Positions 16,401-54,025 of a DNA stretch of 60,494 nt are shown here, piece by piece; position 1 is the first letter of the stretch, and every line of letters starts with the position of its first letter. The stretch lies in the NCBI GenBank assembly GCA_964636275.1, contig CAZWRN010000005.1, positions 1 through 60,494 of the forward strand, read 5' to 3'. The stretch is from an uncultured Gammaproteobacteria bacterium. Its GTDB lineage: Bacteria; Patescibacteriota; Microgenomatia; Daviesbacterales; UBA10151. The notes beneath the pieces are model-generated. The model saw only the letters and a list, made by a program, of their open reading frames with translations. It was not told the DNA's origin and ran no database searches. A program made the position numbers and the translations under genes.

Positions 16401-16951
16401 CTAGATCAACAGGTCCATACTCTTTGGTTACCCAACAGCCTTTGGGTGGTAAAGCTCAGATGGGTGGTCAGAGACTTGGAGAGATGGAGGTATGGGCACT
16501 GGAAGCATACGGTGCAGCGAATATCTTGCAGGAGATGTTAACTATCAAATCAGATGATGTAGTAGGGCGAGCAAAAGCTTTTGAAGCAATCATTAAAGGA
16601 ACGGAGATCCCACAAGCTTTGATCCCAGAATCATTTAAAGTGTTGGTTAAAGAGTTGCAATCTCTGGGTATTTCAGTTGATCCAATTGGTGTTAAAGAAG
16701 CTGTTGAAGAAGAGCCAACTGAAGAAGTTTCTAAAGAGCAAGAACAGATGATTAACCAAGCTAAAGAGGCCTTGGATGTTGAAAATGTCGGTGTTGAGCA
16801 GGAATTGACTGCAGAAGATGGTGCCATGGAGGTAGTTGACCCTGCGGTTGAAGTCGAGGATAATATGGACGCTTTAGCTGATGAAGCTGCCGCAGCTATG
16901 GAAAGTGGCGATCTGGAAGAAATGGAAGAAAAAGAGGAGGAATTAAGTTAA
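13487..16951 (+). CDS. rpoB: RNA polymerase beta subunit with long acidic C-terminal tail
   Basis: INGVERV, TPEGPNIG-like, GDKLAGRHGNKG and GQRLGEMEVWALEAYGA motifs. Confidence 0.99.
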   Translation: MQAAQQPNTINKRVYWGKNRNILSNVQLTKQDLTRLQKESYQRFLTEGIGELLNEISPVTDFTGKNWKLEFGDFFFGKTRFTPEQCHVKGISYDAPLRVRVTLTNLQTNQEYKQEAFFGDIPQMTDKGTFIINGVERVIINQIVRSPGAFFSASDDPITGRKLFGAEIRPQHGSWLEFGVSRSDVLTVKIDRRRKFAATTLLRALGYSEEQMREEFKSVDNNDDHQYIESTLAKDTTKDQNEALLEIFRKMRPGDPVVLETAKSLLQNMFFNARRYNLTRVGRFKMNKRLGLDVPNTPENWTLSKEDIISTLKYLISLANGKGRVDDIDHLANRRVRMVGELVAQNAFWIGLQRLERVIKERMSLLSLDQEITAAGLVNARPVIAAINEFFRSSQLSQILDQTNPLSEIDHLRRLSVTGTGGISRDRASFSIRDINHSQYGRIDPIRSPEGPNIGLVTYLALFARVNEYGFLETPYRKVVAEGNKMKITDEVVYLTADDEEDTYITEASIAVDEKGYITANRVPVRFQGSFFETDVKNVQMIDVSPQQIVGTSASLIPFLAHDDANRALMGTHMQCQAVPLLLPKAPVVGTGMEELIADSMARVVRSPLEGTVTLVDGDRVVVEGKEGKHEFKVNKFVNSPNMTCYSQKPVVKLNQKIKVGDLLIEGTSSDGGELALGTNLLIAYMSYDGLGYEDAIVISDRLVKDDVLSSIHIEEYSTDVVETKLGPDEVTPDIPNVSEEALANLDDRGIVRIGAEVAPGDILVGKVQPKGETELTAEERLLRAIFGEKAKEVRDTSLRMPHGERGTVIGIEILSREAGDDLGAGVLQRIKVKVAQLRKVTAGDKLAGRHGNKGVISKIVPEHDMPHLEDGTPVDIIISSVTVLSRMNLGQLLEAHLGFAAKKLGYKVAAPVFEKIPEDIIVDQFRNAGMQDSAKSRLIDGRTGEYFKQDVVVGYSHFLKLIHMVEDKTHARSTGPYSLVTQQPLGGKAQMGGQRLGEMEVWALEAYGAANILQEMLTIKSDDVVGRAKAFEAIIKGTEIPQALIPESFKVLVKELQSLGISVDPIGVKEAVEEEPTEEVSKEQEQMINQAKEALDVENVGVEQELTAEDGAMEVVDPAVEVEDNMDALADEAAAAMESGDLEEMEEKEEELS

Positions 16952-17026
16952 AAATAATCAAGTTACAAGATAACAAGAAACAAATAATTTGTATCTTGGT
17001 TATTGTATCTTAAAACTTAAATATAT
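16952..17026 (+). repeat. Heptamer-periodic hairpin spacer (CAAG/CTTG type)
   Basis: aatcaag ttacaag ataacaag ... ttgtat cttggtta ttgtat ctt. Confidence 0.75.
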
Positions 17027-21380: not shown

Positions 21381-21507
21381 AAGAAAGGAATAACCAAGAA
21401 ACAAGATACAAGTACCAAACAAAAACCATTTAATCAATTAAATAATTATTAAATTGAAAATTGTTTGGAGAACTTGAATAATTGGAAACTTGATTAATTA
21501 ACTAAAA
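21381..21507 (+). repeat. Heptamer-periodic hairpin spacer (CAAG/CTTG type)
   Basis: aaccaag aaacaag atacaag ... gaacttg aataattg gaaacttg; preceded by AAGAAAGGAA. Confidence 0.7.
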
Positions 21508-26586: not shown

Positions 26587-26613
26587 TTTTATTTACGAAA
26601 AGAAATTAGTTGC

Positions 26614-26635
26614 AACCACCGAAAGGTGGTTTTTT
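26614..26635 (+). terminator. Intrinsic terminator after rpsJ
   Basis: AACCACC-GAAA-GGTGGTT plus T tract. Confidence 0.85.
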
Positions 26636-26643
26636 ATTGCCTA

Positions 26644-27025
26644 CGTCATTTTGAGGAGCGAAGCGATGTAAGAATCTTAATCAATTATGTCTCTATAAAG
26701 GTCAGTGAGTGAAGGATTAAATTTTTTGATTAGCTGCGCTTTCTTTTTACGAGAATACTTCTTTAACTGTTGTTCCCTTTCGACCATTGAATGAGCTGAA
26801 CCAATGATTTCATAATATAGTAGATCATGACATTTGTATCTTTTCGTAAATCCTTCGAATTGTTCATTTTTGTGTTGCCAAATCTGCCTGCCAAGTTGCT
26901 TGATGATCCAACGCAAAGAACTGTTCTAGTGAAATTGCTAACAATGTAAACTGAATAAATTTTGTTTTTCATGTTTTAATTAGATCATGACGCGTATATA
27001 CTTTGTAAGTTCGCTCATGATGACG
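26644..27025. mobile_element. REP-like (CGTCAT...ATGACG) cassette enclosing a GIY-YIG gene
   Basis: Left arm CGTCATTTTGAGGAGCGAAGCGATGTAAGAATCT; right arm AGATC...CGCTCATGATGACG; terminal 6-bp inverted repeat. Confidence 0.5.
26677..26972 (-). pseudogene. Frameshifted GIY-YIG nuclease (UPF0213/YhbQ-like)
   Basis: YSVYIV..LCVG in one frame joins WQHK..GFTKRY..LLYYE..REQQLK in another; one base missing near 26883. Confidence 0.8.
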
Positions 27026-27085
27026 GTTGAGGGTTTATTATATAAACTAACTTGATGCATGCCGGCCGGCTGATTGCATTGTTAA

Positions 27086-27343
27086 TTAGGCTGCTGCCTG
27101 TTCCTGAAGAAATCCAGTGATTTCACTCATACGAGACTGAAAATTTTGAACTTCTTCTGGAAATAAAACAACTGAATTTCTTTTAGCAGGCTGCCCAGTC
27201 TCAACTAAACGAGATTCAGTTATTTTTAAGTATCGTTTGTTGTTGGAAGCTTCTCTGATGTCAAAGAAATATGTTTTCTTACCGCAGTTTAAAACTGAAG
27301 ATTTAATAGCTTTTTTTGGTTCTGTTTGATCCAATTCACTCAC
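27086..27343 (-). CDS. DUF3276/PUR-like single-stranded nucleic-acid-binding protein
   Basis: KTYFFDIREASNNKRYLKITESR...RNSVVLFPEE. Confidence 0.8.
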   Translation of the reverse strand: MSELDQTEPKKAIKSSVLNCGKKTYFFDIREASNNKRYLKITESRLVETGQPAKRNSVVLFPEEVQNFQSRMSEITGFLQEQAAA

Positions 27344-27622
27344 CCCCTTTCCTTAAATGTCGTTACCCTTGAGTTCTAAAAGTTAAACCTGACCAATCAA
27401 TGCTTACTTGATGAGTTTTCTCGAATTTTATTCTTTGGCTTAACCCTTGAATATGTAACTCGCTTGAAAATTGTAGCGAGTTACATGCATCTGTCAAACT
27501 TGATTTGTAGTTAAATCTGAATATGACAGCTGTAGTGAACTCTCCATTAAAATACCCGAATAAAACCCTACTGTCAAGAGATTAATTTGAATTTGTTTTT
27601 ATGAAGATATATACTGCTCCTG

Positions 27623-28387
27623 ATGGAAATATTTTGGATTGTCTTAGCGGTGTTAGCTATATTCCTATTTTTTTCTTCGGTGCGGATTGTACAAGAGTAT
27701 GAGCGGGCGGTTATTTTCTTTTTAGGCCGATGTACAGGTGTCAGGGGTCCAGGGTTGATTCTTTTAATTCCTATATTGGAGTCGATGCAAAAAGTGACAT
27801 TGAGAACAATCACGATGGATATTCCTGCTCAGAAGATTATTACCAAAGATAATGTTTCGATTGATATCTCTGCTGTGGCTTACTATCACATTATTGATCC
27901 TAAAAAATCTGTGATTGCAATTGAAGATGTTTATGACGCTGCCAATCAAATTAGTCAAACAACGGTTCGTAATGTGGTTGGTCAATTTACACTTGATCAA
28001 TTACTTTCGGATCGGACTAAAGTAAATGAGCAGATTCGGAAGGTGATTGATGTTCATACAGAGCCTTGGGGTATTCAGGTAAGCATTGTTGAAATTAAGG
28101 ATATAGTTTTACCGGAAAATATGCAGAGGGCGATGGCTAAAGAAGCGGAGGCTGAAAGAGAGAGAAGAGCTAAAATCGTGGCTGCTGAAGGTGAATTACA
28201 GGCTGCAGAAAAGCTAGGTTTGGCTGCTGATGTGATGCAGAAACATCCAGTGGCTTTGCAGCTTCGAACTTTGCAAACAATGGCTGAAATATCGGTGGAA
28301 AAGAATTCAACAATTATATTTCCGGCTCAATTTATGACTACGGTCCAAGAAGCTATTAAAATGTTGAAAACTGATTCTATTAAGTAA
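27623..28387 (+). CDS. SPFH/stomatin (band 7) family protein
   Basis: ERAVIFFLGR, TKDNVSI, AMAKEAEAERERRAK, ALQLRTLQT. Confidence 0.93.
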   Translation: MEIFWIVLAVLAIFLFFSSVRIVQEYERAVIFFLGRCTGVRGPGLILLIPILESMQKVTLRTITMDIPAQKIITKDNVSIDISAVAYYHIIDPKKSVIAIEDVYDAANQISQTTVRNVVGQFTLDQLLSDRTKVNEQIRKVIDVHTEPWGIQVSIVEIKDIVLPENMQRAMAKEAEAERERRAKIVAAEGELQAAEKLGLAADVMQKHPVALQLRTLQTMAEISVEKNSTIIFPAQFMTTVQEAIKMLKTDSIK

Positions 28388-28408
28388 TCTCTTTAAAATA
28401 CCTATAGC

Positions 28409-28593
28409 TTGCAATTAGCTTCAATTCTGTGTTAAAATTACGAAAGAACTGAATGATTACGTCAGGATAGTTTTTACAGTTTTAAAAAAATCAGTAAGTT
28501 GTGCGTCCTCCGATGGGATACGACAATTGAAACAGGCACATTTTACTGAGTGAGAGCCCGCAAGGCCTCACTTTTTTTGTTGTTAAAGGCATT
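28409..28593 (+). promoter_or_regulatory. rplC promoter and structured leader with terminator-like hairpin
   Basis: TTGCAA-N18-TAAAAT (extended -10); AGTGAG..GCC/GGC..CTCACT plus T7 at 28549-28578. Confidence 0.6.
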
Positions 28594-29421
28594 ATGATCA
28601 ATACATTAATTGGTATTAAAAAAGATATGACTTCAGGTTATGACCAGCGTGGTAGACGTGTGGGTGTAACTAAAATTTCTGTGCCTTCAAATTTCATTAC
28701 TCAGGTAAAGACTTCTGACAAAGATGGCTACAACGCTGTACAGATTGCGACAGGTAGTAAAAAGAGTGTTCTCAAACCACAACGTGGTCATTTTAAAAAA
28801 GCCGGTGTCGCAGAGACTATGCGTTACATCGCTGAAGTACGAACTGAGGAAGTAGCAGATTTTACAGGAGGCCAGGAGATAAAACCGGCCTCTGTTTTTA
28901 AAGTTGGGGATATTGTCAAAGTTACCGGAGTTAGTAAAGGAAAAGGGTTTCAGGGTGGAGTAAAACGACACGGTTTTCATGGCGGACCAAAAACTCACGG
29001 TCAGTCAGATCGACATCGAGCTCCCGGATCTATTGGTTCTGGTACCACTCCAGGTCGAGTTTATAAAGGTAAAAAGATGGCTGGTCACATGGGTTCTGAG
29101 ACAGCAACTGTTCGTAATCTGGAAGTGATTGCGGTAGATCGAAAAGAAGGTGTTTTAGTTGTTAAGGGTGGTGTTCCAGGACATATTGGTTCAGAGCTTC
29201 GAATTACTAAACTAGGTGTTTTGAAGGGATATACTCCACCACCTGAGCCAGAAGAGGAAGAAGAAACTCCTTCTGATGTTGAACAGATGGCCGGAGTAAC
29301 TGAAGAGCAGGCTCAAGAAGAAGTACCAGCAGCTGAAATCGTAGAAGCCGTTGAGGCTGCAGATACTCCTGCTGAAGAAGTAAAAGCAGAAGATACTTCA
29401 GTCGAAGAGGAGGCTAAATAA
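28594..29421 (+). CDS. rplC: 50S ribosomal protein L3
   Basis: KGKGFQGGVKRHGF, GRVYKGKKMAGHMG; acidic tail. Confidence 0.99.
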   Translation: MINTLIGIKKDMTSGYDQRGRRVGVTKISVPSNFITQVKTSDKDGYNAVQIATGSKKSVLKPQRGHFKKAGVAETMRYIAEVRTEEVADFTGGQEIKPASVFKVGDIVKVTGVSKGKGFQGGVKRHGFHGGPKTHGQSDRHRAPGSIGSGTTPGRVYKGKKMAGHMGSETATVRNLEVIAVDRKEGVLVVKGGVPGHIGSELRITKLGVLKGYTPPPEPEEEEETPSDVEQMAGVTEEQAQEEVPAAEIVEAVEAADTPAEEVKAEDTSVEEEAK

Positions 29422-29426
29422 TAGCT

Positions 29427-30155
29427 ATGGCAACTAAACAAGTAAAGACAGAAAAAGTTGAAGTAAAAGCAGAAGCTCCTAAAGTTGCTGTAAAAACAGC
29501 AAAAACTGCTGGCCTGACAGTTACTACTTATTCTGTTGGTGGTAAAGAAGCTGGCAATTTGGAATTGCCGAAAAGTATTTTTGAAGGTCCAGTAAATAGT
29601 GCATTAATTGCTCAAGCCATGCGAGTGTATATCAATAATGAAAAAGGTCATTATTCAAATACTAAAACTCGAGGTGAGGTAACTGGTTCAACTAGAAAGA
29701 TTTACAAACAAAAAGGGACTGGTAGAGCTAGACATGGAAGTATTATGGCACCAATCTTTGTAGGGGGAGGTATCGCTTTGGGGCCTAAATCTAGAATTAC
29801 CAATATGGAGTTACCAAAAAAGATGAAAAAAGCTGCGCTGGTCGCTGCTTTACGGGAGAAATTGAATACAAATGAGTTGAGTGGGGTTGATTTGGGTAAA
29901 TTGACCGGTAAAACCAAAGAAGTGGGTAATTTCTTAAAGGGAGTTAATAAAAAAACAGCTTTGGTTGTGGTTGATGGATTGAATGAAATGGTTCAAAGAG
30001 CTACCCGAAATGTTCAGGGTTTGTCAGTAATGACTGCTACTGAGATAAATGTTTTTGAAGTTATAAAGCACCAGAGTGTGTTTATGACTCAAGAAGCCGT
30101 TGTAAAGTTGGAAGAAAGAATGGCCGGTAAGAAAGTTGAGGAATCAAAAAAATGA
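29427..30155 (+). CDS. rplD: 50S ribosomal protein L4
   Basis: KQKGTGRARHGS, GGGIALGPK. Confidence 0.98.
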   Translation: MATKQVKTEKVEVKAEAPKVAVKTAKTAGLTVTTYSVGGKEAGNLELPKSIFEGPVNSALIAQAMRVYINNEKGHYSNTKTRGEVTGSTRKIYKQKGTGRARHGSIMAPIFVGGGIALGPKSRITNMELPKKMKKAALVAALREKLNTNELSGVDLGKLTGKTKEVGNFLKGVNKKTALVVVDGLNEMVQRATRNVQGLSVMTATEINVFEVIKHQSVFMTQEAVVKLEERMAGKKVEESKK

Positions 30156-30637
30156 GAGCTGTTATCTTAAAACCTTTAATTAATGAGAAATCAATGACTT
30201 TGGCTAAAACAGATTTTTATACTTTTTTGATCGATCTTTCAGCATCAAAAGATCAGGTGGCGAAAATAGTTCGTGAAAAATTTGGAGTAACTGTGTTATC
30301 AGTTAAAACTGTTACTATTCAACCAAAAACTAAAAACCAGAGAACTCGTCGAGGCACTTATACGACAGCTAAAACAAAAAAAGCGATCGTTCAGGTTGGT
30401 AAAGGTCAGCGAATTGCTTTGTTTGAAGAAGCTACAAAAGAGCCTGAGGAAGAAGTAGAAGTGAGAACTGCAGAGGGTGAGAAAGTAACTGAAGTAAAAG
30501 AGAAAAAAAGTTTACTGAAAGGTACTAAAGTAAAAATTGAAAAAGCTGCGACAGGTAAAGTGGCAGATAAAGCTGAAGTAGCAAAAGAAGAGACTCGGAA
30601 GCAATCGCAGAAACAATCAGAGAAAGGTGGAAAATAA
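30152..30637 (+). CDS. rplW: 50S ribosomal protein L23
   Basis: KPLINEKS, KKAIVQV; long Lys/Glu tail. Confidence 0.96.
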   Translation: MRAVILKPLINEKSMTLAKTDFYTFLIDLSASKDQVAKIVREKFGVTVLSVKTVTIQPKTKNQRTRRGTYTTAKTKKAIVQVGKGQRIALFEEATKEPEEEVEVRTAEGEKVTEVKEKKSLLKGTKVKIEKAATGKVADKAEVAKEETRKQSQKQSEKGGK

Positions 30638-30649
30638 GAGTAAGGTAGT

Positions 30650-30711
30650 GCTTCGACTCGCTACGCTCGCTCAGCATGACAAATTGAATGAAAATTATAT
30701 TCAATTTGTCA
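30650..30711. repeat. REP-like half element plus perfect 13-bp inverted repeat
   Basis: GCTTCGACTCGCTACGCTCGCTCAGCATGAC; TGACAAATTGAAT (30677-89) / ATTCAATTTGTCA (30699-711). Confidence 0.65.
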
Positions 30712-30727
30712 AAAAGCAAAAGATAAT

Positions 30728-31549
30728 ATGGCATTAATAGAGTACAAAGAGAAAACCAATACTAGAAGATTTAGCTCTCGAATTGAGAAGCCAAAAAAGA
30801 CTGGTAAAAAGATTAAAGCGTTGCAGACTTTGCTGAAAAAGCACGCTGGTCGTTCTAAAGGTCGGGTTACCGTGAGACATCAGGGTGGACGACACAAAAG
30901 ACAGTATCGATTGATCGATTTTAAGCGAAATAAGTCAGGTGTAGAAGGTAAAATTGAGGCCGTAGAATATGATCCAAATCGAAATGTTGATATCGCTTTG
31001 ATCAACTATAGTGACGGCGAAAAAAGATATATTTTGTTGCCAGGTGGAATGAAAAAAGGCGATACTGTAGTAGCTGGTGACCGGGTTGAAGTACGAACTG
31101 GAAATGCGATGAAACTGAAAAGTATGCCAGTTGGTACTTTGGTTCACAATGTTGAACTAACACCAGGTCGAGGTGGTCAGATTGGAAGAAGTGCGGGAAC
31201 TAGTTTGATTATTCAGGCTAAAGAAAGTGGCTATGCACACTTGAAAATGCCTTCAGGAGAGATTAGAATGGTCTCTTTGGAAGCTATGGGTACGGTTGGG
31301 GTACTTGGTAATGAAGAATGGAAAAATGTCGTATTGGGTAAAGCTGGAAGATCACGACATATGGGTATTAGACCAGCTGTTCGGGGTGTAGCTCAGGATC
31401 CTCGCTCACACGCTCATGGTGGAGGTGAAGCGAAATCTGGAGTTGGTCGAAAGAGTCCAATGACTAAATACGGCAAGAAAGCTGTTGGAAAGACTCGAAA
31501 TAAGACTAAATGGACAAATAGATATATTGTTAAAAGGAGAAAGGCATAA
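30728..31549 (+). CDS. rplB: 50S ribosomal protein L2
   Basis: YRLIDFKR, EYDPNR, GKAGRSRH, HGGGE. Confidence 0.99.
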   Translation: MALIEYKEKTNTRRFSSRIEKPKKTGKKIKALQTLLKKHAGRSKGRVTVRHQGGRHKRQYRLIDFKRNKSGVEGKIEAVEYDPNRNVDIALINYSDGEKRYILLPGGMKKGDTVVAGDRVEVRTGNAMKLKSMPVGTLVHNVELTPGRGGQIGRSAGTSLIIQAKESGYAHLKMPSGEIRMVSLEAMGTVGVLGNEEWKNVVLGKAGRSRHMGIRPAVRGVAQDPRSHAHGGGEAKSGVGRKSPMTKYGKKAVGKTRNKTKWTNRYIVKRRKA

Positions 31550-31552
31550 ATT

Positions 31553-31837
31553 ATGGCAAGAAGCTCGTATAAAGGTCCATATGTGGACGAAAAATTGATG
31601 AAAAAAGTTATGGCACAGAAAAATGGTGCTCCAAAAGTGTCCATCAAAACATGGGCTCGAAGAAGTACTATTCCGCCTGAGTTTGTGGGGCATACTTTTA
31701 TGGTTCATCAAGGTAAAAACTTTATTACTGTCTATGTTTCTGAAGCCATGGTAGGACACAAACTCGGTGAGTTTGCTCCAACCAGAACTTTCAAAGGACA
31801 TGGAAAGATGACTGATAAATCAACATCAAAGACATAA
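31553..31837 (+). CDS. rpsS: 30S ribosomal protein S19
   Basis: [23 protein letters not shown]. Confidence 0.99.
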
Positions 31838-31913
31838 AAGGAATGATAAGTCGCAAGTGACTAGAGTCTAGGAAGACAACCTTGATTCTTGACTCTTGCC
31901 ACTAGAAACTAAA
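31838..31913 (+). repeat. Heptamer-periodic hairpin spacer
   Basis: tgataag tcgcaag tgactag agtctag ... cttgatt cttgact cttgcca ctagaaa cta. Confidence 0.8.
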
Positions 31914-32351
31914 ATGGAATATATAACGATACAGAAGAATATTACACAGTCACCTCGAAAGGTGCGACTAGTGGCTGATATGGTCAGAAAAATGGATCCA
32001 TATCGAGCATTGGATGTTTTGCAGTTTACAAACAAAGCTGCTGCACTTCCTTTGGCTAAAGCGATTAAATCTGTTTTGGCAAATGCAGGTAATGCTGAAG
32101 GTTTGAGTTTTGTCAGTATTCAGGTAAATGAAGGTCTGAAGATGAAAAGATATCGAGCAGGTACTGCTGGTCGAGGTCGTGGTCGTCCATACAGACGTCG
32201 AATGAGTCATATCAAGATTGTGGTTTCTGATGAGGGAATGGTAAATGTACCAGTTACTATGCCAGCACCTAAAGTAGAAACTTTTGAAAAAGTTGAAGCA
32301 ATTGAAGCAGCTGAAATTAAAGAAGTAAAGGAGGATAAAGCTAAGAAATAA
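31914..32351 (+). CDS. rplV: 50S ribosomal protein L22
   Basis: QSPRKVRLVAD, RRRMSHIKIVV; start moved to ATG 31914. Confidence 0.97.
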   Translation: MEYITIQKNITQSPRKVRLVADMVRKMDPYRALDVLQFTNKAAALPLAKAIKSVLANAGNAEGLSFVSIQVNEGLKMKRYRAGTAGRGRGRPYRRRMSHIKIVVSDEGMVNVPVTMPAPKVETFEKVEAIEAAEIKEVKEDKAKK

Positions 32352-32395
32352 TAATTGGAATACTTGATTATTGTTTCTTGGATACTTAATTAAAA
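32352..32395 (+). repeat. Partial heptamer spacer (3' arm type)
   Basis: taattgg aatacttg attattg tttcttg gatactt. Confidence 0.5.
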
Positions 32396-33037
32396 ATGGG
32401 ACAAAAGATACATCCAATTGGTTTTAGACTTGGTGTGGGTTCTCCTTGGGAAGCCAGATGGTTTGCTCCTGGGAAAAAATATCAGCAAAATCTGATGGAA
32501 GATATTAAAATCAGAAATTTGTTGATGAAAAAATTGCGACCGGCTGGTATTTCAAAAATTGAAATTGAACGAGCTGTAAGCAAGTTAAAAGTTATTTTGC
32601 ATGTTTCACGCCCTGGTGTTTTGATTGGTCGGGGTGGAAGTGGTTTGACTGATTTGAAGAAATACCTGATGAAACAGTTGGGTGTCAAAGAAGAAAGTAA
32701 TCTAGAGATTGCTCCAATGGATGTTAAAAATCCAGATATGTCAGCTTATTTGGTTGCGCAGTCAGTTGCTGAACAGCTAGTTCGACGAATGCCTGCGGCT
32801 CGAGTGATGAATCAGACTTTGGATCGTGTTATGCACGCCGGGGCTAAAGGTGTGAAAGTAGTGTTGTCTGGACGAATTGGTGGAGCTGAGATTGCTCGAC
32901 GAGAATCAAAGTTTGCTGGAAGCATTCCACTTCATACTTTGAGAACAGATATCGACTTTGCGGTATATCCAGCGTTGACTAAATCTGGTTATGTTGGTGT
33001 GAAAGTTTGGATCAATAGAGGGGAGAATAAGATATAG
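32396..33037 (+). CDS. rpsC: 30S ribosomal protein S3
   Basis: MGQKIHPIGFRLG, SGRIGGAEIAR, GVKVWI. Confidence 0.99.
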   Translation: MGQKIHPIGFRLGVGSPWEARWFAPGKKYQQNLMEDIKIRNLLMKKLRPAGISKIEIERAVSKLKVILHVSRPGVLIGRGGSGLTDLKKYLMKQLGVKEESNLEIAPMDVKNPDMSAYLVAQSVAEQLVRRMPAARVMNQTLDRVMHAGAKGVKVVLSGRIGGAEIARRESKFAGSIPLHTLRTDIDFAVYPALTKSGYVGVKVWINRGENKI

Positions 33038-33080
33038 AGTCTAGTCGCAAGTGACTGGAGTCTAGAAACTAAAAACTAAT
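33038..33080 (+). repeat. Short heptamer spacer
   Basis: agtctag tcgcaag tgactgg agtctag ... ctaaaaa ctaat; shares units with 31838-31913. Confidence 0.7.
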
Positions 33081-33500
33081 ATGCCATTATTAACACCAAA
33101 AAGAGTTAAATTTAGAAAAGCTTTTCGAGGGAAAAGAGGCGGTGTAGCAACTCGAAATAACACTATCTCTTTTGGTACGTTTGGTTTGAAAAGTGAAGAA
33201 GCTGGGTGGGTAACATCACGACAGATTGAAGCTGCTAGACGAGCTATGGCGCGATATACTCAGCGAGGTGGTCGTATTTTTATCCGGATCTTTCCAGATA
33301 AACCGATTACCAAACATCCGGCTGAGGCTCGAATGGGTTCAGGTAAGGGTGACGTGGTGGGATATGTAGCGGTGGTAAAGCCGGGTACTATTATTTTTGA
33401 AATGGGTGCAGTAGCTGAGGATATTGCCAGAGAAGCGATGCGATTGGCTTCGCATAAGATGGCATTAAAAACTAGGTTTATTACGAAAGGAGTAAATTAG
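33081..33500 (+). CDS. rplP: 50S ribosomal protein L16
   Basis: [25 protein letters not shown]. Confidence 0.99.
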
Positions 33501-33574
33501 AGATTAGCAAGTAGAGATTAGAAAATAGTTTAAAAAATCTAATCACTAATTACTAATTACTAATCACTAAAATT
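33501..33574 (+). repeat. Heptamer-periodic hairpin spacer (TAG/CTA type)
   Basis: agattag caagtag agattag aaaatag ... ctaatca ctaatta ctaatta ctaatca cta. Confidence 0.88.
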
Positions 33575-33808
33575 ATGGCTGACAAAATGGATGTAACAAC
33601 TATTAAAAATATGGATACTAAATCTGTTCAGGCAACTGCTCAAAAACTAAGAGGAGAGATTTCTGATCTAATGGTTGATAAAAACTTAAATAAATTAAAA
33701 GATTTAAAATCTATTGATAAAAAAAGAAAAGATTTGGCTAGAGTTTTGACTATCTTAAATCAAAAACAAGTTCTGGAAAAACTTGAAGCTGGAAAGGAGG
33801 CTAAATAA
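33575..33808 (+). CDS. rpmC: 50S ribosomal protein L29
   Basis: Position between rplP and rpsQ; RKDLARVLTILNQK. Confidence 0.92.
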   Translation: MADKMDVTTIKNMDTKSVQATAQKLRGEISDLMVDKNLNKLKDLKSIDKKRKDLARVLTILNQKQVLEKLEAGKEAK

Positions 33809-33810
33809 TT

Positions 33811-34200
33811 ATGATCGGACGAGTTGTTTCAAATAAAACTGCAAAGACAGTGACTGTTTTGGTAGAAAGCCGAAAAAGCCATCCTTTGTACAAAAAAACC
33901 TTTGCATGGAGTAAAAAATATTTAGTTCATGATGAAATAGGTGCTCAGATGGGTGATATCGTTGACATTAAAAAGAGTCGGCCATTTTCTAAAAGGAAAC
34001 ATTGGATGGTAGCAAAAATTGTTGGTCGAGATATTGTACCGATGAATGAAGAAGCTTTGAAAGAAGTCTCTCAGGATGTGATCGAAGAAGTAATGCCGGT
34101 TGAAGTAGAAACTGAAAATGTTGAAGCTGAAGTGATAGTTGAAGATAAAGCTGATGAAAAACCAGCTAAAAAAACTAAAAAAGCGAAGGAGACTAAATAA
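33811..34200 (+). CDS. rpsQ: 30S ribosomal protein S17
   Basis: GRVVSNK, HPLYKK, SRPFSKRKHW; Glu/Lys tail. Confidence 0.98.
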   Translation: MIGRVVSNKTAKTVTVLVESRKSHPLYKKTFAWSKKYLVHDEIGAQMGDIVDIKKSRPFSKRKHWMVAKIVGRDIVPMNEEALKEVSQDVIEEVMPVEVETENVEAEVIVEDKADEKPAKKTKKAKETK

Positions 34201-35433: not shown

Positions 35434-35490
35434 TGAGTGCAATTTGAGATAGTTTGATCTATAATTATAGGTCGGAAGGATAAAGAATAG
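35421..35490 (+). other. 54-nt insert creating an alternative rplE 3' end
   Basis: GAAGG direct repeat (35421/35475); precise removal gives ...MPFMKDKE*. Confidence 0.6.
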
Positions 35491-35564
35491 AGATTAGCAA
35501 ATAGCGATTAGATAATAGTTAATTAATTTAGAAATCTAATCACTAATCACTATTCACTGATAAA
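35491..35564 (+). repeat. Heptamer-periodic hairpin spacer (TAG/CTA type)
   Basis: agattag caaatag cgattag ataatag ... ctaatca ctaatca ctattca ctga. Confidence 0.85.
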
Positions 35565-35744: not shown

Positions 35745-35823
35745 AGCTTCTAGCTTCGTCTAGAAAGAAAGGAAAACTAAATATATTTCGGATTTCGAAA
35801 TTCGGATTTAGAGTTTATTAATT
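35745..35823 (+). repeat. Small hairpin plus heptamer run
   Basis: TTCTAG-CTTCGT-CTAGAA; AAGAAAGGAA; tcggatt tcgaaat tcggatt tagagtt. Confidence 0.6.
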
Positions 35824-36219
35824 ATGGATATCGTAGCTGATGCATTAATTAGAATTAAAAATGGTTACTTGGCTCAAAAAGATGAGGTGTTGTTGCCTTA
35901 TTCTAAATTGATCAGTTCAATTTGTGATGTATTGAAAAAAGAGGGATACATTGCGGGTTGGAGTGAGAAAAAAGCTGAAAAAAGTAAAGTAAATATGGGT
36001 GTTACTGTCACTTTGCAATACAATGATCGAAAACCAGCTATGACGGAGGTTCGAAGAATCTCAAAACCTGGTCTGCGAGTATACAAAGGTGCAAGTGCTT
36101 TGCCCTATGTATTAAGTGGTGTTGGAATGGCATTGATTTCTACACCAAAAGGTGTGATGACGGATAAAGCAGCCCGCAAAGCCAAATTGGGCGGAGAGGT
36201 AATGGCTTACGTTTGGTAA
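35824..36219 (+). CDS. rpsH: 30S ribosomal protein S8
   Basis: DALIRIKNG, RISKPGLRVY, STPKGVMTD. Confidence 0.99.
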   Translation: MDIVADALIRIKNGYLAQKDEVLLPYSKLISSICDVLKKEGYIAGWSEKKAEKSKVNMGVTVTLQYNDRKPAMTEVRRISKPGLRVYKGASALPYVLSGVGMALISTPKGVMTDKAARKAKLGGEVMAYVW

Positions 36220-36297
36220 GAAAGGAATAAACCAAGAAATAATATAACAAGAAACAAATAATTGTATCTTGAATATTGTCTCTTGGAAAACTTAATT
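36220..36297 (+). repeat. Heptamer-periodic hairpin spacer (CAAG/CTTG type)
   Basis: aaccaag ... aacaag aaacaa ... ttgtat cttgaata ttgtct cttgg; preceded by GAAAGGAA. Confidence 0.75.
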
Positions 36298-36849
36298 ATG
36301 AGTAGAATCGGTAACAATCCAATAGTTTTGCCACAAGGAGTTGAAGTAACTCTAAGTGATGATATGGTAGCTGTTAAAGGGCCAAAAGGTGCTTTGGAGA
36401 TGCCACTTCATAAATCCATTAAGGTTGAGCAGGAGGATGGTAAATTGATTATAAAAAGAAAAAGAGGCAATCAAGAAGGTCGTTCCATGCATGGTCTGAT
36501 GAGAACATTGGTAAATAATATGGTTGTTGGTGTAACTACTGGTTGGACCAAAAATTTAGAAATGGTTGGTGTGGGGTATCGGGCTCAGGGTGGTGGAAAT
36601 GCGTTGATATTAAATGTAGGATACTCTCATCCGGTGAAGATGGAAGCGCCTGAAGGGATCACATTTGCAGTTGCGGAGAATACAAAATTATCAGTGACTG
36701 GAATTGATAAAGCCTTGGTTGGACAGATTGCTGCCAATATTCGGGCTGTAAAACCACCTGAGGTATATAAAGGTAAAGGTATTCGTTATGTTGGTGAATA
36801 TGTCAGAAAGAAAGCTGGTAAAGCTGGAAAGGCCGCCGGAGGAAAATAA
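36298..36849 (+). CDS. rplF: 50S ribosomal protein L6
   Basis: MSRIGNNPI, GVGYRA, PEVYKGKGIRY; start moved to ATG 36298. Confidence 0.99.
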   Translation: MSRIGNNPIVLPQGVEVTLSDDMVAVKGPKGALEMPLHKSIKVEQEDGKLIIKRKRGNQEGRSMHGLMRTLVNNMVVGVTTGWTKNLEMVGVGYRAQGGGNALILNVGYSHPVKMEAPEGITFAVAENTKLSVTGIDKALVGQIAANIRAVKPPEVYKGKGIRYVGEYVRKKAGKAGKAAGGK

Positions 36850-36919
36850 ATAGGCAGTAGTAAGTAGGATTTGATACATTCCTACTAACTACCACCTACA
36901 GCCTACTAACTAAATATAT
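36850..36919 (+). repeat. Heptamer-periodic hairpin spacer (TAG/CTA type)
   Basis: taggcag tagtaag tagga ... ctactaa ctaccac ctacagc ctactaa cta. Confidence 0.8.
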
Positions 36920-37255
36920 ATGTTTAAAGCTAAAAGAATACATCGACATACAAAAGTACGAAAAAAGATCTCTGGTAATGGAGAAAGACCTCGAGTGGCT
37001 ATTTTTAGATCAACTCAACATATTTATGCTCAGATCATTGATGATATGCAGCATAAAACACTGGTTTCTGAGTCAGATCTGAAAATTAAATCTGGAAATA
37101 AAACGGATAAAGCTACTCAGGTGGGGGAAGCTTTAGCCAAAAAAGCGGTCGCTCAAAAGATCAGTAAAGTAGTATTTGATCGAGGAGGTTTTTTGTATCA
37201 CGGTAGAGTGAAAGCTCTCGCTGAAGGTTTGCGAAAAGGAGGGTTAGATTTCTAA
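36920..37255 (+). CDS. rplR: 50S ribosomal protein L18
   Basis: RPRVAIFRS, VFDRGGFLYHGRVKALA. Confidence 0.99.
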   Translation: MFKAKRIHRHTKVRKKISGNGERPRVAIFRSTQHIYAQIIDDMQHKTLVSESDLKIKSGNKTDKATQVGEALAKKAVAQKISKVVFDRGGFLYHGRVKALAEGLRKGGLDF

Positions 37256-41284: not shown

Positions 41285-41536
41285 ATGGATCAGATACCAG
41301 ATGAGATTGAAGTCGAGGGAGTAGTGCTAGAGGTGTTACCAAATACCTTATTTCGGGTGGAGATTACTGCTTCCCGAACTATCCCTGAACTGGTAAAAAG
41401 GGTGATTTTATGCCACATTTCTGGTAAGATGCGCAGACATTACATCAGGTTGCTACAAGGTGATCGAGTAGTTGCTGAAATGAGTCCGAAATATGATTTG
41501 GACAAAGGACGCATCAAGCTGAGATTGAGATCTTAG
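41285..41536 (+). CDS. infA: Translation initiation factor IF-1
   Basis: [36 protein letters not shown]. Confidence 0.97.
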
Positions 41537-41613
41537 AAGTGACAAGAGTCTAGAGTCAAGAGTCTAGGCAGAAAGGGTCACTAGTCACTAGACTCTAGCG
41601 ACTAGTTACTAAT
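41537..41613 (+). repeat. Heptamer-periodic hairpin spacer
   Basis: tgacaag agtctag agtcaag agtctag ... ctagtca ctagact ctagcga ctagtta cta. Confidence 0.88.
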
Positions 41614-41730
41614 ATGAAAGTAGCAGCAAGTATTAAAACAAGATGTACTGGATGTAAAGTTGTTAAACGCGAAGGTGTTTTGTTCGTGATCTGTTCACGT
41701 GATCCAAAACACAAACAGAGACAAGGATAA
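41614..41730 (+). CDS. rpmJ: 50S ribosomal protein L36 (38 aa, not in the ORF track)
   Basis: [38 protein letters not shown]. Confidence 0.98.
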
Positions 41731-41830
41731 GAAAGGAAAAAATTATAAAGTCAAAATTATAAATGATAAAACAAGGTTAACTTCGTTCAAGTTTTATAAT
41801 TTATACTTTATAATTTGAAATTTAAATTAA
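41731..41830 (+). repeat. Heptamer-periodic hairpin spacer (AAA/TTT type)
   Basis: aaattat aaagtca aaattat aaatgat ... ataattt atacttt ataattt gaaattt; preceded by GAAAGGAA. Confidence 0.75.
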
Positions 41831-42205
41831 ATGGCTAGACTTGCAGGAATTGATATACCAAATGATAAAAGAGCTGATATTGGATTGACCTACATTTTTG
41901 GTGTGGGCAGATCCAATGTGCGCCAACTTTTGGAAAAAGCTAAAGTTGAAGGATCAAAAAGAGTTAAAGATTTATCTGAGGAAGAAGTTAATAGATTGCA
42001 GAAAGCTTTGGAAGGTTGGGTTGTTGAAGGTGATTTAAATCGAGAGATCGCGCAGAATATTAAAAGATTGGAAGAGATCGGTTCATATCGAGGTTTGAGA
42101 CACCGAAAAGGTTTACCAGCCAGAGGTCAGAATACCAGACGTAATTCACGAACTAAAAAAGGTAAGAGAAAAACAGTCGGTACAGTAAAGAAGGAGACGA
42201 AATAG
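41831..42205 (+). CDS. rpsM: 30S ribosomal protein S13
   Basis: [28 protein letters not shown]. Confidence 0.99.
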
Positions 42206-42282
42206 CTTATAGTTGTTAGCTTCCAGCTTTTAGTCTAATCACTAGAAGCTACAAGCTTAAAGCTGAAAGCAAAAAAATAAAT
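42206..42282 (+). repeat. Heptamer-periodic hairpin spacer (AGC/GCT type)
   Basis: ttatagt tgttagc ttccagc ttttagt ... ctagaag ctacaag cttaaag ctgaaag. Confidence 0.8.
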
Positions 42283-42681
42283 ATGGCTAAAAAAGTTCAG
42301 ATTAAAACTAAGAAAAAAGCAGTAGAGCAAAAAACTATTGAAAAAGGTCGAATTTATGTTACAGCGACTTTTAACAATACTTTAGTAACTCTGACTGATA
42401 CAGCGGGAGCTGCTTTGACCTGGAGTTCATCCGGAAATGTTGGATTTAAAGGCGCCAGAAGGGCAACTCCATTTGCTGCAATTACGGCAGTTGAAAAAGT
42501 TGCGGCTAAAGCCAAACAAATGGGAATGAATTCAATGGAGGTCTATATTAAAGGACCTGGTCCTGGACGAGATGCATCTATCCGGGCTTTGAAAAATGTT
42601 GGTATGGGTATTACTATGATCGCCGATATGACACCGGTTCCACACAATGGCCCACGGGCTAAGAAAAGGAGAAGAGTATAA
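42283..42681 (+). CDS. rpsK: 30S ribosomal protein S11
   Basis: ATFNNT, GFKGARRATPFAA, TPVPHNG. Confidence 0.99.
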   Translation: MAKKVQIKTKKKAVEQKTIEKGRIYVTATFNNTLVTLTDTAGAALTWSSSGNVGFKGARRATPFAAITAVEKVAAKAKQMGMNSMEVYIKGPGPGRDASIRALKNVGMGITMIADMTPVPHNGPRAKKRRRV

Positions 42682-42760
42682 GTAGAGAATAGCAATTAGA
42701 GATTAGTAATTAGTTTTGAAACTATTTACTATTTGCTATTTACTAATTACTAAATCAAAT
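42682..42760 (+). repeat. Heptamer-periodic hairpin spacer (TAG/CTA type)
   Basis: agaatag caattag agattag taattag ... ctattta ctatttg ctattta ctaatta cta. Confidence 0.88.
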
Positions 42761-45623: not shown

Positions 45624-46394
45624 ATGCAAAATAAAGTTAGTTTACGGAACATTCAATTACTAAGAGAGGATCTCTTTGGTTGGAAAAAATATCCGTTTAA
45701 TATTCCCGTAATTAAAAATTTAGACAGATTGGATATAAAAAGCCGAGTATGTTTTTTTATTGGCGAGAATGGAACTGGTAAATCAACTTTACTAGAAGCC
45801 ATAGCTGCGGTTTATGGATTTGGCAAAGAAGGAGGCAGCAAGAATATCGGATTCTCGACTGCTGATAAAGACACCAATGATTTGGCCGATCATATTCGAT
45901 TAAGCTGGTCTAAAAAGTTATTAGGGGGATATTTTTTTAGAGCTGAGAGTTTTTTTAATTTGGCAACTTATCTGGATGATATGAAAAACACTTTGGGAGG
46001 AGAGAGAGCTTACGATTCCTATGGTGGAGAGTCGCTACATATTAAGTCCCATGGGCAATCATTATTAGCACTATTTAATAATCGTTTCTCAGGGGAAGGC
46101 TTTTATCTATTAGATGAACCGGAAGCAGCACTGTCCCCTCAGAGACAATTGTCATTGCTGATTATTATCCGAGATATATTAAAGCATTTCCCTGATTCTC
46201 AGTTTATTATTGCGACGCATTCGCCGATATTATTAGCTTTTCCTGATGCTCAAATAATGACCTTTGATGGTAAAACCATTGAAGAAATTCAGTATGAGGA
46301 TACAGCTATCTATCAGATTTCAAAGGCTTTTTTAGCTTCTCCGGAAAATTTTATCGAAAAACTTTTTGTTCAAGACTCCAAAAAAAACCGCTAA
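45624..46394 (+). CDS. ABC/SMC-like ATPase (COG3910-like)
   Basis: GENGTGKS, SHGQS signature variant, LLDEPE, IATHS. Confidence 0.88.
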   Translation: MQNKVSLRNIQLLREDLFGWKKYPFNIPVIKNLDRLDIKSRVCFFIGENGTGKSTLLEAIAAVYGFGKEGGSKNIGFSTADKDTNDLADHIRLSWSKKLLGGYFFRAESFFNLATYLDDMKNTLGGERAYDSYGGESLHIKSHGQSLLALFNNRFSGEGFYLLDEPEAALSPQRQLSLLIIIRDILKHFPDSQFIIATHSPILLAFPDAQIMTFDGKTIEEIQYEDTAIYQISKAFLASPENFIEKLFVQDSKKNR

Positions 46395-46415
46395 CTTGCG
46401 TTAACGGTTTTTTTT
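46381..46415. terminator. Bidirectional terminator between the convergent ATPase and pilin genes
   Basis: A7-CCG-C-TAAC-TTGC-GTTA-A-CGG-T8. Confidence 0.8.
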
Positions 46416-46437
46416 GTTACCTTGATGTAACTTAAGA

Positions 46438-52560: not shown

Positions 52561-52599
52561 GTCTGTATTTTAACAAATGTTGTCAAACAAAGTATAATT

Positions 52600-52691
52600 A
52601 ATTAGTTAGTAGGTGATAGTTGGTAGTTTGTAGGATAGCTACAATTGATTTATTTCTACTAACTACAACCTACTGACTACTTACTAACTAC
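52600..52691 (+). repeat. Heptamer-periodic hairpin (TAG/CTA type) outside the ribosomal operons
   Basis: gtgatag ttggtag tttgtag ... ctactaa ctacaac ctactga ctactta cta, ending at the ATG. Confidence 0.8.
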
Positions 52692-53810
52692 ATGAAAGAA
52701 TTTATTATTCCATTTATCATCCTATTGGTTGGTTTTGGGGCCTATTTTTTATTTATTGGTAAAGGTGTTTTTTTCTTGCCTACCAAAGAGATGGTTGCCC
52801 ACCAAAAAGCTCAACCGGCCTATTATCCGCCGGCAAGTGGTTTGCCTGCAGCAACTGTACCTCCACAGACTTTGACACTTGAGTCAATTTTTAAATCAAC
52901 CCACGTCTTACCCGTCAGGAGCGGATTACCTGTTATTACTTTGGTTGCAACTGGAGATGTGATACCAGCTAGAAGTGTCAATTATCAGGTGATCACTAGA
53001 AAAGATTTTACCTGGCCTTATTTAAAAACGGCGGACAAGCTTAAAGAAGCAGATATTACCTTTATCAACTTGGAAACTCCGCTGATCAAAAATTGCCCGG
53101 TGACTCAGGAAGGGATGAATTTTTGTGGAGATGCCAGAAATATTGAGGGGCTGATATATGCCGGAGTAGATGTAGCCAATCTGGCCAACAACCATCTTGG
53201 TAACAAAGGCAAAGCTGGAGTTGATGAGACAATAGCCGGACTGAAAAAAGCCGGAATTCAAACGACCGGTAGTGGCGACAATCTAGCTATATTAGAAGTT
53301 AGAGGGATCAAGTTTGCTTTTTTGGGATACAACGATATTGAGAAAACTCCTTTAGTGACTTCAGCCGATGAAAAATTGGTGGAAAAAGAGGTGTCAGAAG
53401 CCAAAAAGAAAGCGGATGTGGTGGTGGTGCAGTTTCACTGGGGGACAGAGTATAAAACTGAAGTTGAAGACAGGCAAAAAGCGTTGGGTAGACTAGCGAT
53501 AGATAGTGGAGCCGATCTAGTAATTGGTAATCATCCGCATTGGATAAAGCCGATTGAGCTCTACAAGGATAAATTGATCACCTATGCTCATGGTAATTTT
53601 GTCTTTGATCAGGAATGGTCACAAAAGACCAAAGAGGGAGTTGTAGGAAGATATGTTTTTATTGGCAAAAATCTGGTTGATGTGGAGTTTTTGCCGGTTG
53701 AGATCAAAGATTATGGACAACCTTATTTTCTGGAGGGTGATGCTAAGCAAAAGATTTTGGATGAGATGTATGAAGCTAGTAAACAGATGAGATCGGATGA
53801 GATCAGATAG
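52692..53810 (+). CDS. CapA/PGA_cap family metallophosphoesterase-like protein
   Basis: ATGDV, NLETP, ANNH, HWGTEY, GNHPH, HGNFVFDQ. Confidence 0.9.
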   Translation: MKEFIIPFIILLVGFGAYFLFIGKGVFFLPTKEMVAHQKAQPAYYPPASGLPAATVPPQTLTLESIFKSTHVLPVRSGLPVITLVATGDVIPARSVNYQVITRKDFTWPYLKTADKLKEADITFINLETPLIKNCPVTQEGMNFCGDARNIEGLIYAGVDVANLANNHLGNKGKAGVDETIAGLKKAGIQTTGSGDNLAILEVRGIKFAFLGYNDIEKTPLVTSADEKLVEKEVSEAKKKADVVVVQFHWGTEYKTEVEDRQKALGRLAIDSGADLVIGNHPHWIKPIELYKDKLITYAHGNFVFDQEWSQKTKEGVVGRYVFIGKNLVDVEFLPVEIKDYGQPYFLEGDAKQKILDEMYEASKQMRSDEIR

Positions 53811-53946
53811 ATCGGATGAGATCGGATAGATCGGATAGATCGGATAGATCGGATAGATCGGATAGATCGGATGAGATCAGATAGATCGGATGAGATCAGA
53901 TAGATCGGATGAGATCAGATAAATCGGATGAAATCGGATAAATCAG
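53787..53946 (+). repeat. Tandem array of 17 9/10-bp units (ATAGATCGG / ATGAGATCRG)
   Basis: Hand-parsed: eight 9-mers, six 10-mers, three degenerate units; overlaps the capA stop. Confidence 0.95.
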
Positions 53947-54025
53947 ATAAGTAAACTTGAAGCATCGCATTAGATCGGATTTATCTGTAATTGACTTCAG
54001 CTTATAAAAGTGTAATTATAGGGTT

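Follow-up and report, generated by a model that had tools for sequence, protein, structure and literature searches.

Split ribosome-binding sites (RBSs), in which a stem-loop lies between a distant Shine-Dalgarno (SD) sequence and its start codon, have been described for genes 38 and 25 of phage T4, where folding cuts the SD-AUG spacing from 22 to 5 nt and from 27 to 11 nt, respectively, the latter at the intercistronic 26-25 junction (PMC3014915). Both sites were verified by mutation and probing (Nivinskas et al. 1999; Malys & Nivinskas 2009; reviewed in PMC3014915). Here we analyze a 60,494-nt contig, CAZWRN010000005.1 (assembly GCA_964636275.1; hereafter the window, by which we mean this whole stretch), from a Daviesbacteria-related bacterium of the Candidate Phyla Radiation (CPR), in which stem-loops of 45-105 nt lie between the upstream stop and the next ATG at 15 gene junctions: rpoB-rpoC, rpsL-rpsG, and 13 more in the S10/spc/alpha cluster of ribosomal protein (r-protein) genes. 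As in T4 genes 25 and 38, the SD is far upstream, none is found at normal spacing, and a stem-loop intervenes. The T4 sites, however, belong to single phage genes, and their structure is conserved among close T-even phages, whereas here 15 essential cellular junctions are involved, the helices span 27-98 nt, are built of repeats, evolve fast and are not conserved, and the predicted residual spacing is 12-20 rather than 5-11 nt. In the literature searched, T4 was the sole source of split RBSs, and no account of repeat hairpins between cistrons of CPR operons came up. What appears to be new here, judging from the arrangement of the sequences, is a T4-like layout that is operon-wide, cellular, modular and repeat-built. 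Hitherto, split RBSs have passed for an oddity of two T4 genes; should the reading proposed below hold as the normal arrangement at more than a dozen junctions in essential operons of balanced stoichiometry, RNA folding can bring SD and AUG together on a genomic scale, tightly packed operons are shown to tolerate repeat invasion in this way, and the junctions offer a natural sequence set for 30S accommodation of long helices at the platform, in organisms that, to our knowledge, are not culturable alone.

Several other described systems share some of these features. Like repetitive extragenic palindromes and bacterial interspersed mosaic elements (REP/BIME) or miniature inverted-repeat transposable elements (MITEs), the hairpins form families of imperfect intergenic palindromes which are strand-symmetric at the DNA level and polymorphic for presence and absence. 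Unlike them, they lack terminal inverted repeats and target-site duplications (TSDs), show heptamer periodicity within their arms, and are placed almost exclusively between the stop or SD and the ATG in a few operons, some copies overlapping the last codons of the upstream gene and supplying its stop. Intercistronic hairpins processed by RNase III occur in phage T7 early mRNA and in E. coli rplJL-rpoBC; the present elements likewise separate cistrons of highly expressed operons by long, imperfect stems, but cleavage here would part the SD from the AUG. The TAACTGA heptamer direct repeats located 5' of RBS-less start codons in Beggiatoaceae, Cyanobacteria and Bacteroidetes (MacGregor 2015, PMC4679880) are similar in being G-poor forward tandem heptamers that end a few nt before starts lacking a canonical RBS, and in showing indels between strains in 7-nt steps. 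The units here, however, are CTAATCA, TTTATAA, GTCACTA and others, the lineage is CPR, and the arrays are paired with a complementary 5' arm, usually with an SD before it. Finally, termination-reinitiation coupling at cistrons that overlap or lie close together (PMC6728339, PMC10666635) resembles the present layout in having an SD embedded where the upstream gene ends and in linking subunits of stoichiometric complexes, but the linear stop-start distance of 43-131 nt at the hairpin junctions far exceeds what is reported to allow reinitiation; only folding would restore proximity.

In the window, an SD adjacent to the start codon is present at 12 of the 14 spacer-free junctions (gap <=15 nt) and at none of the 15 hairpin junctions. 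SDs were scored as ungapped duplexes with the canonical 16S tail, with the aligned spacing measured; the anti-SD was taken as canonical, the 16S gene being outside the window. Where spacer-free junctions carry an SD, it lies mostly 10-13 nt from the ATG (range 4-14), as a preliminary description of this cluster had stated; the absence of an SD adjoining the ATG at hairpin junctions, which it also claimed, is borne out by the 0/15 count, and the distal motifs that it listed are all present, namely AAAGGAG in rplP, GGAGG in rplF, AAGGAG in rpsM, and GAAAGGAA after rpsL, rpsH and rpmJ. At 13 of the 15 hairpin junctions, a strong SD is found 2-10 nt 5' of the helix and 50-118 nt 5' of the start codon, with duplex scores of -6.9 to -10.9 (canonical anti-SD assumed). 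Two junctions, rpoB-rpoC, which had been missed, and rpsL-rpsG, which had been only implicit, fit the same pattern. The distal-SD/hairpin layout is real, and it extends beyond the region to which it had been assigned.

The same contrast is seen across the family. Among seven genomes, an adjacent SD is present at 59 of 89 short and 4 of 67 long junctions (Fisher p = 2e-15), while about 100 non-CPR loci from other phyla, put through the identical analysis, have it at 48% of short and 40% of long junctions and show no contrast. SD-like matches occur in 17.7% of 32-nt coding windows and near 62% of the stops that precede long spacers. A chance origin of the SD/hairpin pattern is excluded. SDs located outside coding sequence are 5', and never 3', of the hairpin (rpsL-rpsG, rplE-rpsN, rpsN-rpsH, rpsH-rplF, rpmJ-rpsM, and junctions in relatives). 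Use of the distal SD is further supported by the near-absence of newly evolved proximal SDs among the 67 long junctions.

The rplP-rpmC junction may serve as an example. The products, L16 and L29, were identified with Pfam support on identical contigs. The 3' end of rplP reads ...acGAAAGGAGtaaatTAG, and its last codons contain the distal SD, GAAAGGAG (33485-33492; this and all junction features below are on the + strand), with a duplex score of -10.0 against the 16S tail template and a predicted probability of being unpaired, P(unpaired), of 0.67. The TAG stop (33498-33500) is followed by a 74-nt spacer and the rpmC ATG at 33575, which places the SD 82 nt from the ATG; scoring across the junction revealed no SD close to the rpmC start. 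The stem-loop extends from 33496 to 33564 (minimum free energy (MFE) helix -14.6 kcal/mol, z = -3.56). Its 5' arm consists of TAGAGAT/TAGCAAG repeats, with the rplP TAG stop within them, and its 3' arm of 4.6 copies of CTAATCA/CTAATTA, followed by a 10-nt tail to the ATG; Tandem Repeats Finder reports period 7 at 33496-33522 and 33539-33570. With the MFE helix, 3 + 10 = 13 nt remain unpaired from the SD to the start codon. The preliminary description had proposed that looping out restores a spacing of 10 nt here; the geometry holds, but the figure of 10 needs an outer register, 33498-33569, in which 9 of 10 positions pair by eye and which is not the MFE structure. In two relatives the hairpin is absent, and the spacer measures 17 nt (L089) or 2 nt (L082).

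To describe junction geometry, we folded the RNA from SD to ATG and counted the unpaired nt in the MFE structure from the last SD base; z-scores refer to dinucleotide shuffles. Folding with 35 nt of upstream coding sequence was dropped as noisy, because the SD was pulled into spurious pairs, and a window-wide 80-nt MFE scan was dropped as unspecific, since coding sequence folds equally well at that threshold. All 11 hairpins tested are more stable than their shuffles (z -2.9 to -6.9). The looped-out spacing is mostly 12-20 nt: 12 at rpsK-rpsD, 13 at rplP-rpmC and rplE-rpsN, 15 at rpoB-rpoC and rpsN-rpsH, 16 at rpsH-rplF and rpmJ-rpsM, and 20 at rpsL-rpsG, rplW-rplB, rplV-rpsC and rpsM-rpsK, with outliers at rpsC-rplP (25) and rplF-rplR (29). 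Boltzmann medians of the aligned spacing after folding are 11-20, and the distance from helix to ATG is mostly 9-16 nt, with extremes of 3 and 21. Because the arms are tandem repeats, spacing shifts in steps of about 7 nt between registers. Folding with and without the hairpin had been suggested as a check on the SD-ATG distance, and it gives systematic shortening to values that are looser than the native 10-13; since the looped-out spacings are near native, folding returns the SD to roughly, though not exactly, the native distance. The predicted P(unpaired) is 0.62-0.86 for the SD, 0.20-0.45 for the hairpin interior and 0.46-0.92 for positions -12 to -1, and this modeled accessibility fits a split site. 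Neither tight spacing nor a negative d1-d2 correlation was accepted as proving selection, since both are also expected if neutral insertions hit a fixed spacer.

The arms of the hairpins are tandem repeats of 7 nt (8 nt in some relatives). The long spacers in the window have a lag-7 self-identity of 0.50; at other lags the value is about 0.30, and coding sequence gives 0.25. Purines prevail in the 5' arms, which in many cases are TAG-phased, while the 3' arms are G-poor, CTA/TAA-phased arrays of period 7 with 3.3-5.3 copies; the stems are imperfect, with 11-34 predicted base pairs. About six sequence types coexist (TAGAGAT/CTAATCA, CAAGAAA/TTTCTTG, AGAGTCT/GTCACTA, TTATAAA, TAGGCAG/CCTACTA and TAGCTTC/GAAGCTA), in 1-4 copies each, and all but one copy are in translation or transcription operons; in the fragmentary metagenome-assembled genomes (MAGs) of relatives, an octamer-type pattern matched only r-protein contigs. 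The upstream stop is often within the 5' arm, and TAG is used at 26 of 63 long vs 9 of 89 short junctions (p = 1e-5). Rfam gave no match at the gathering threshold over the whole window and nothing relevant at E <= 1 in 16000-46500. It is worth mentioning that CTAATCAA/CTAATTCA octamer direct repeats are also found on four contigs binned as Phycisphaerae (L136), Chitinophagales (L139), Pirellulales (L140) and Saprospiraceae (L141); the array is immediately 5' of an ATG in L136 and L140, and is paired into a hairpin in L141.

Comparison with relatives reveals rapid turnover. Relatives were sought with SecY, because L16 peptides are too conserved and L16 queries yielded only distant phyla. The nearest named relative is a Candidatus Daviesbacteria MAG (L082, SecY 73% identical); closer ones are L081 (96%) and L089 and L107 (88-92%), and two metagenome contigs, L148 and L149, are at 72-74%. 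Hairpin presence or absence and hairpin type differ between genomes with SecY 88-96% identical. Four junctions filled in the window are empty in L081, L089 or L082 (rpsC-rplP, rplP-rpmC, infA-rpmJ, rpsH-rplF), and four that are empty in the window are filled in L089 (rplN-rplX, rplX-rplE, rpsQ-rplN, rplB-rpsS). At rplE-rpsN, the window has the TAGAGATTAG type and L081 and L089 have the CAAGAAA type, in each case after a conserved GGTCG(G/A)AAGGA. One strain, represented by a metatranscriptome contig with a loose end at 34191, has a hairpin at rpsQ-rplN. Individual hairpins are thus gained, lost and replaced rather than conserved, though the SD-hairpin-ATG layout recurs; at rplW-rplB, for instance, all four lineages compared have a hairpin, with a different sequence in each. 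Filled and empty sites show no TSD: the spacer is replaced, often together with the stop (TAA to TAG). In the same-species contig L144, the rplP-rpmC hairpin has one extra 3'-arm heptamer and two uncompensated 5'-arm changes; the latter bring that 5' arm to identity with the rplE-rpsN arm of the window, which suggests exchange among copies.

The SD may travel with the hairpin. Filled rpsH-rplF sites read TAA-GAAAGGAA-hairpin, and L081, L148 and L149 have neither hairpin nor SD there. L089 has a new AGAAAGG in front of its rplN-rplX hairpin, and the SD inside the gene is weaker there owing to a synonymous change of GAG to GAA. In L149, rplW, rpmC and rpsQ all end in AAGAAAGGAGAYRGYAAATAG followed by an identical 5' arm (positions 2294, 5415 and 5935), and their proteins share a C-terminal KKGD(S/G)K; SD, stop and 5' arm here behave as one module copied to three junctions. 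Similarly, rplV and rplQ of L148 both end in ...ctagtagcTAG, giving C-terminal SS* (positions 3602 and 16310). Levyibacteriota L008 has TAG-heptamer hairpins at 10 of 14 junctions, with tails of 8-10 nt. Other insertions of about 300-400 nt, at rpmJ-rpsM in L107 (375 nt) and in L082 and L147 (298 nt), and at rplB-rpsS in the last two (395 nt), resemble small ORFs followed by a proximal SD rather than hairpins.

We propose that the hairpins are labile palindromic repeat modules which are tolerated, and probably used, as split RBSs, a reading to which we assign a probability of about 0.5. In highly expressed translation and transcription operons, repeat stem-loops would have arisen by insertion, copying or expansion at one precise place, after the SD-bearing end of a cistron and before the start codon that follows; in the mRNA, the arms would pair and loop out 45-105 nt, leaving SD and AUG about 12-20 nt apart, and the junction would keep working as a stretched split RBS of the T4 gene 25/38 kind. 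We infer that the distal SD is used. As the stop codon is in or at the helix, a terminating ribosome must melt it; the SD, 5-12 nt 5' of the last sense codon, would be in a good position to retain the 30S subunit when translation terminates, and the helix, on re-forming, may deliver the AUG to the SD-held 30S, so that reinitiation and de novo initiation would both use one layout. The persistence of hairpins at SD-ATG spacers would then be explained by their folding out of the way. The co-occurrence of SD and hairpin at rpsH-rplF and the L149 module, as patterns among compared sequences, fit tolerance or use. A more far-reaching and rather doubtful version is that of a portable cassette, composed of SD, stop (often TAG), heptamer stem-loop and short A/U tail, which would have spread by copy-paste among essential-operon junctions in Microgenomates, sometimes rewriting r-protein C-termini, and would act as a structured split RBS or as a coupling device, the 7-nt phase perhaps being read by a protein or by the ribosome.

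Several observations weigh against the split-RBS reading. No compensatory changes were found among same-species contigs or close relatives. There is no excess of sense-strand stability or of G-U pairs: MFE totals are -841 kcal/mol for sense and -812 for antisense, with 92 vs 78 G-U pairs (Wilcoxon p = 0.38), 1x1 mismatch types in the hairpins show no asymmetry, and at the DNA level the palindromes are symmetric. After loop-out, spacings exceed the native ones, vary more and depend on register. About half of the hairpin junctions in L008 are without an upstream SD, and a hairpin at 52598-52691 has neither an upstream gene nor an SD outside its helix; the SD is therefore not what the hairpins are there for. 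Insertion at infA-rpmJ took away a spacer SD that is seen in L081. A strong adjacent SD is present in 4 of 39 window genes outside the r-protein cluster (starts not curated), which suggests that SD-independent initiation may be usual here. Assembled RNA contigs, of low depth, from two wastewater metatranscriptomes among the four public runs compared with the cluster are uninformative about processing, as their ends at hairpins are indistinguishable from assembly breaks. Finally, a neutral palindrome landing in the sole free non-coding target, the SD-ATG spacer, gives the same geometry. The earlier proposal that the inserts are tolerated or used because folding rebuilds the RBS accordingly stands in part: the geometry is systematic, the SD abuts the helix and is open, while covariation and sense-strand bias are lacking, some hairpins have no SD and the spacings are loose.

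The strongest alternative, which we regard as possible, if distinctly weaker, is that the hairpins are selfish or neutral palindromic insertions, arising by slippage or copy-paste, with no role in initiation, translation of the downstream genes starting independently of an SD from the A/U-rich, G-poor tail or proceeding by plain termination-reinitiation, and the upstream SD being a relic, a by-product of Lys-Gly-Glu codons, or a sequence kept only in hairpin-free phases. Presence/absence and type swaps at 88-96% SecY identity, variation of repeat number within a species, strand symmetry without G-U bias, the SD-less hairpins of L008 and at 52598-52691, the scarcity of SDs in non-operon genes, and the frequent inclusion of the stop codon in the repeat all speak for it, and both G-poor octamer direct repeats on contigs of unrelated phyla (Planctomycetes, Bacteroidetes) and TAACTGA repeats (PMC4679880) likewise lie just 5' of ATGs. 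It does not readily accommodate non-coding SDs whose place 5' of the helix is kept at family-level divergence even as the hairpin is altered in sequence, an SD that is part of the duplicated L149 module, or the dearth of new adjacent SDs at long junctions; moreover, reinitiation is reported to need overlaps or very short distances (PMC10666635).

An unlikely explanation is that the hairpins are processing, stability or protein-binding elements, such as RNase III substrates resembling the T7 intercistronic sites, or heptamers read by a Csp- or S1-like protein, through which each cistron would be given its own relative stability or level of translation, with SD proximity being incidental. Imperfect stems of 11-34 bp between cistrons of long operons, the strict phasing seen in the lag-7 identity, and, in the window, the restriction of the elements to highly expressed operons agree with this, as does the binding of Csp to heptamers proposed for TAACTGA repeats (PMC4679880); several metatranscriptome contig ends lie within hairpins, but ends at repeats are expected from assembly alone. 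No sequence is conserved across hairpin types, and the missing adjacent SD would be left unaccounted for. Transcription attenuators or terminators tuning operon polarity are very improbable in spite of the stable intergenic hairpins, given AT-rich stems followed by A-rich tails (AAAATT, TTAATT) without a U-run, an anatomy which excludes a terminator role, their occurrence at up to 15 consecutive junctions inside essential stoichiometric operons, and the different appearance of the one clear terminator-like hairpin in the window (46370-46425).

The remaining junctions of the split-RBS layout are as follows. At rpoB-rpoC (16933-17026), the SD AGAGGAGG (16933-16940) precedes a helix at 16943-17013 (z -3.65), with the stop (16949-16951) inside it and the ATG at 17027. 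At rpsL-rpsG (21382-21507), the non-coding SD AGAAAGGA (21382-21389) is immediately 3' of the TAA stop, and is followed by a compound stem-loop (21395-21492; z -3.85) and the ATG at 21508. The rplW-rplB junction (30621-30727) has the SD AGAAAGG (30621-30627) and two stem-loops at 30638-30717, one GC-richer and one AT-rich, before the ATG at 30728. A partial exception is rpsS-rplV (31837-31913), where a weak AAAGGA (31837-31842) is the sole SD-like motif 5' of the stem-loop (31849-31910; ATG 31914). At rplV-rpsC (32327-32395), with the SD AAAGGAGG (32327-32334), a helix at 32341-32381 and the ATG at 32396, the 5' arm is formed by the last codons and stop of rplV. The rpsC-rplP junction (33017-33080) contains the SD AGAGGGGAG (33017-33025) and a short stem-loop (33035-33064) that begins at the TAG stop and leaves a 16-nt tail before the ATG at 33081; L089 and L082, which lack the hairpin, have 'TAA act/att ATG' there, and the unchanged SD is then 14 nt away from the start codon.

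Farther downstream, rplE-rpsN (35474-35564) has the non-coding SD GGAAGGA (35474-35480) and a stem-loop of the TAGAGATTAG / CTAATCACTAA type (35485-35555; z -3.79; ATG 35565). Between rplE and this SD is a conserved non-repeat segment, tgagtgcaatttgagatagtttGATCTATAATTATAGGTC (35434-35473), also found in L081 and L089 and constant in the three genomes though the downstream hairpin was swapped; it may be a separate regulatory hairpin. The SD AGAAAGGA recurs outside coding sequence at rpsN-rpsH (35766-35823; SD 35766-35773, weak stem-loop 35777-35811, ATG 35824), at rpsH-rplF (36219-36297; SD 36219-36226 at the stop, stem-loop of the CAAGAAA type 36232-36286 with z -6.90, ATG 36298), and at rpmJ-rpsM (41730-41830; SD 41730-41737, stem-loop 41740-41816 with z -4.60, ATG 41831), the latter being built of TTTATAA heptamers and common to L081, with uncompensated differences. 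At rplF-rplR (36838-36919), the SD GGAGG (36838-36842) is followed by a TAGGCAG/CCTACTA stem-loop (36851-36898; z -4.08) and a 21-nt tail with extra repeat units before the ATG at 36920; the spacing of about 15 nt proposed earlier for this junction is reachable in an outer register, but the MFE structure gives 29. The SD GAAGGAG (42190-42196) and a stem-loop at 42205-42270 (z -4.94) precede the ATG (42283) at rpsM-rpsK (42190-42282), and at rpsK-rpsD (42665-42760) the SD AAAGGAG (42665-42671) precedes a stem-loop that includes the TAA stop (42675-42751; z -2.97; ATG 42761).

The exception to the layout is infA-rpmJ (41534-41613), where the stem-loop runs from the TAG stop to 3 nt before the ATG at 41614 (z -2.85), no SD is found 5' of the helix, and AGAAAGGG (41570-41577) in the apical loop is the sole SD-like motif; L081 has 'TAA ggagattaaacag ATG' there. 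The 3' arm of this hairpin alone (41570-41606, CTAG-rich) can self-fold at -12.4 kcal/mol, which leaves 9 unpaired nt between AGAAAGGG and the ATG (aligned spacing 7); through this modeled alternative fold, opening of the 5' arm would give a split RBS again. The hairpin in the 5' untranslated region of the CapA-like (PGA_cap) gene (52598-52691), which is of the same repeat type as those at the junctions and is composed of TAGTTGG / CTACTAA heptamers (-34 kcal/mol, z -6.22), leaves 8-12 unpaired nt, depending on the fold, between helix and ATG (52692). Mechanically called ORF starts (TTG/GTG) fall within hairpins or spacers for rplV (31896), rplF (36262), rpsD (42716) and map (40169), whereas homology supports the ATGs at 31914, 36298, 42761 and 40253, respectively; gene callers are likely to misplace these starts.

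The window (GC 37.7%), whose sequence is present in DNA runs from wastewater and freshwater, carries on its + strand rpoB-rpoC, rpsL-rpsG-fusA-tuf and rpsJ, then the genes from rplC to rplO, among which rpmD (L30) is absent, followed by secY, adk, map, infA, rpmJ, rpsM, rpsK, rpsD, rpoA, rplQ, rplM and rpsI. That L30 is missing is a sign of a member of the Microgenomates (CPR), and the closest relatives point the same way. The S10 operon is interrupted by about 2 kb between rpsJ and rplC (26587-28593), containing small ORFs on the minus strand (26680-26916, a weak GIY-YIG fragment; 27089-27343, DUF3276) and an SPFH/Band-7 gene on the plus strand (27623-28387), with one terminator-like hairpin after rpsJ and another before rplC. 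Long Lys-rich C-terminal extensions beyond the Pfam domain are present in L3 (275 aa, 28594-29421), L23 (161 aa, 30152-30637) and S17 (129 aa, 33811-34200). A tandem array at 53784-53949, with 8.7 copies of the 19-nt unit CAGATAGATCGGATGAGAT and a 9-nt sub-period AGATCGGAT repeated 17 times, overlaps the 3' end of the CapA-like ORF (52692-53810) and continues into the spacer before 54026.

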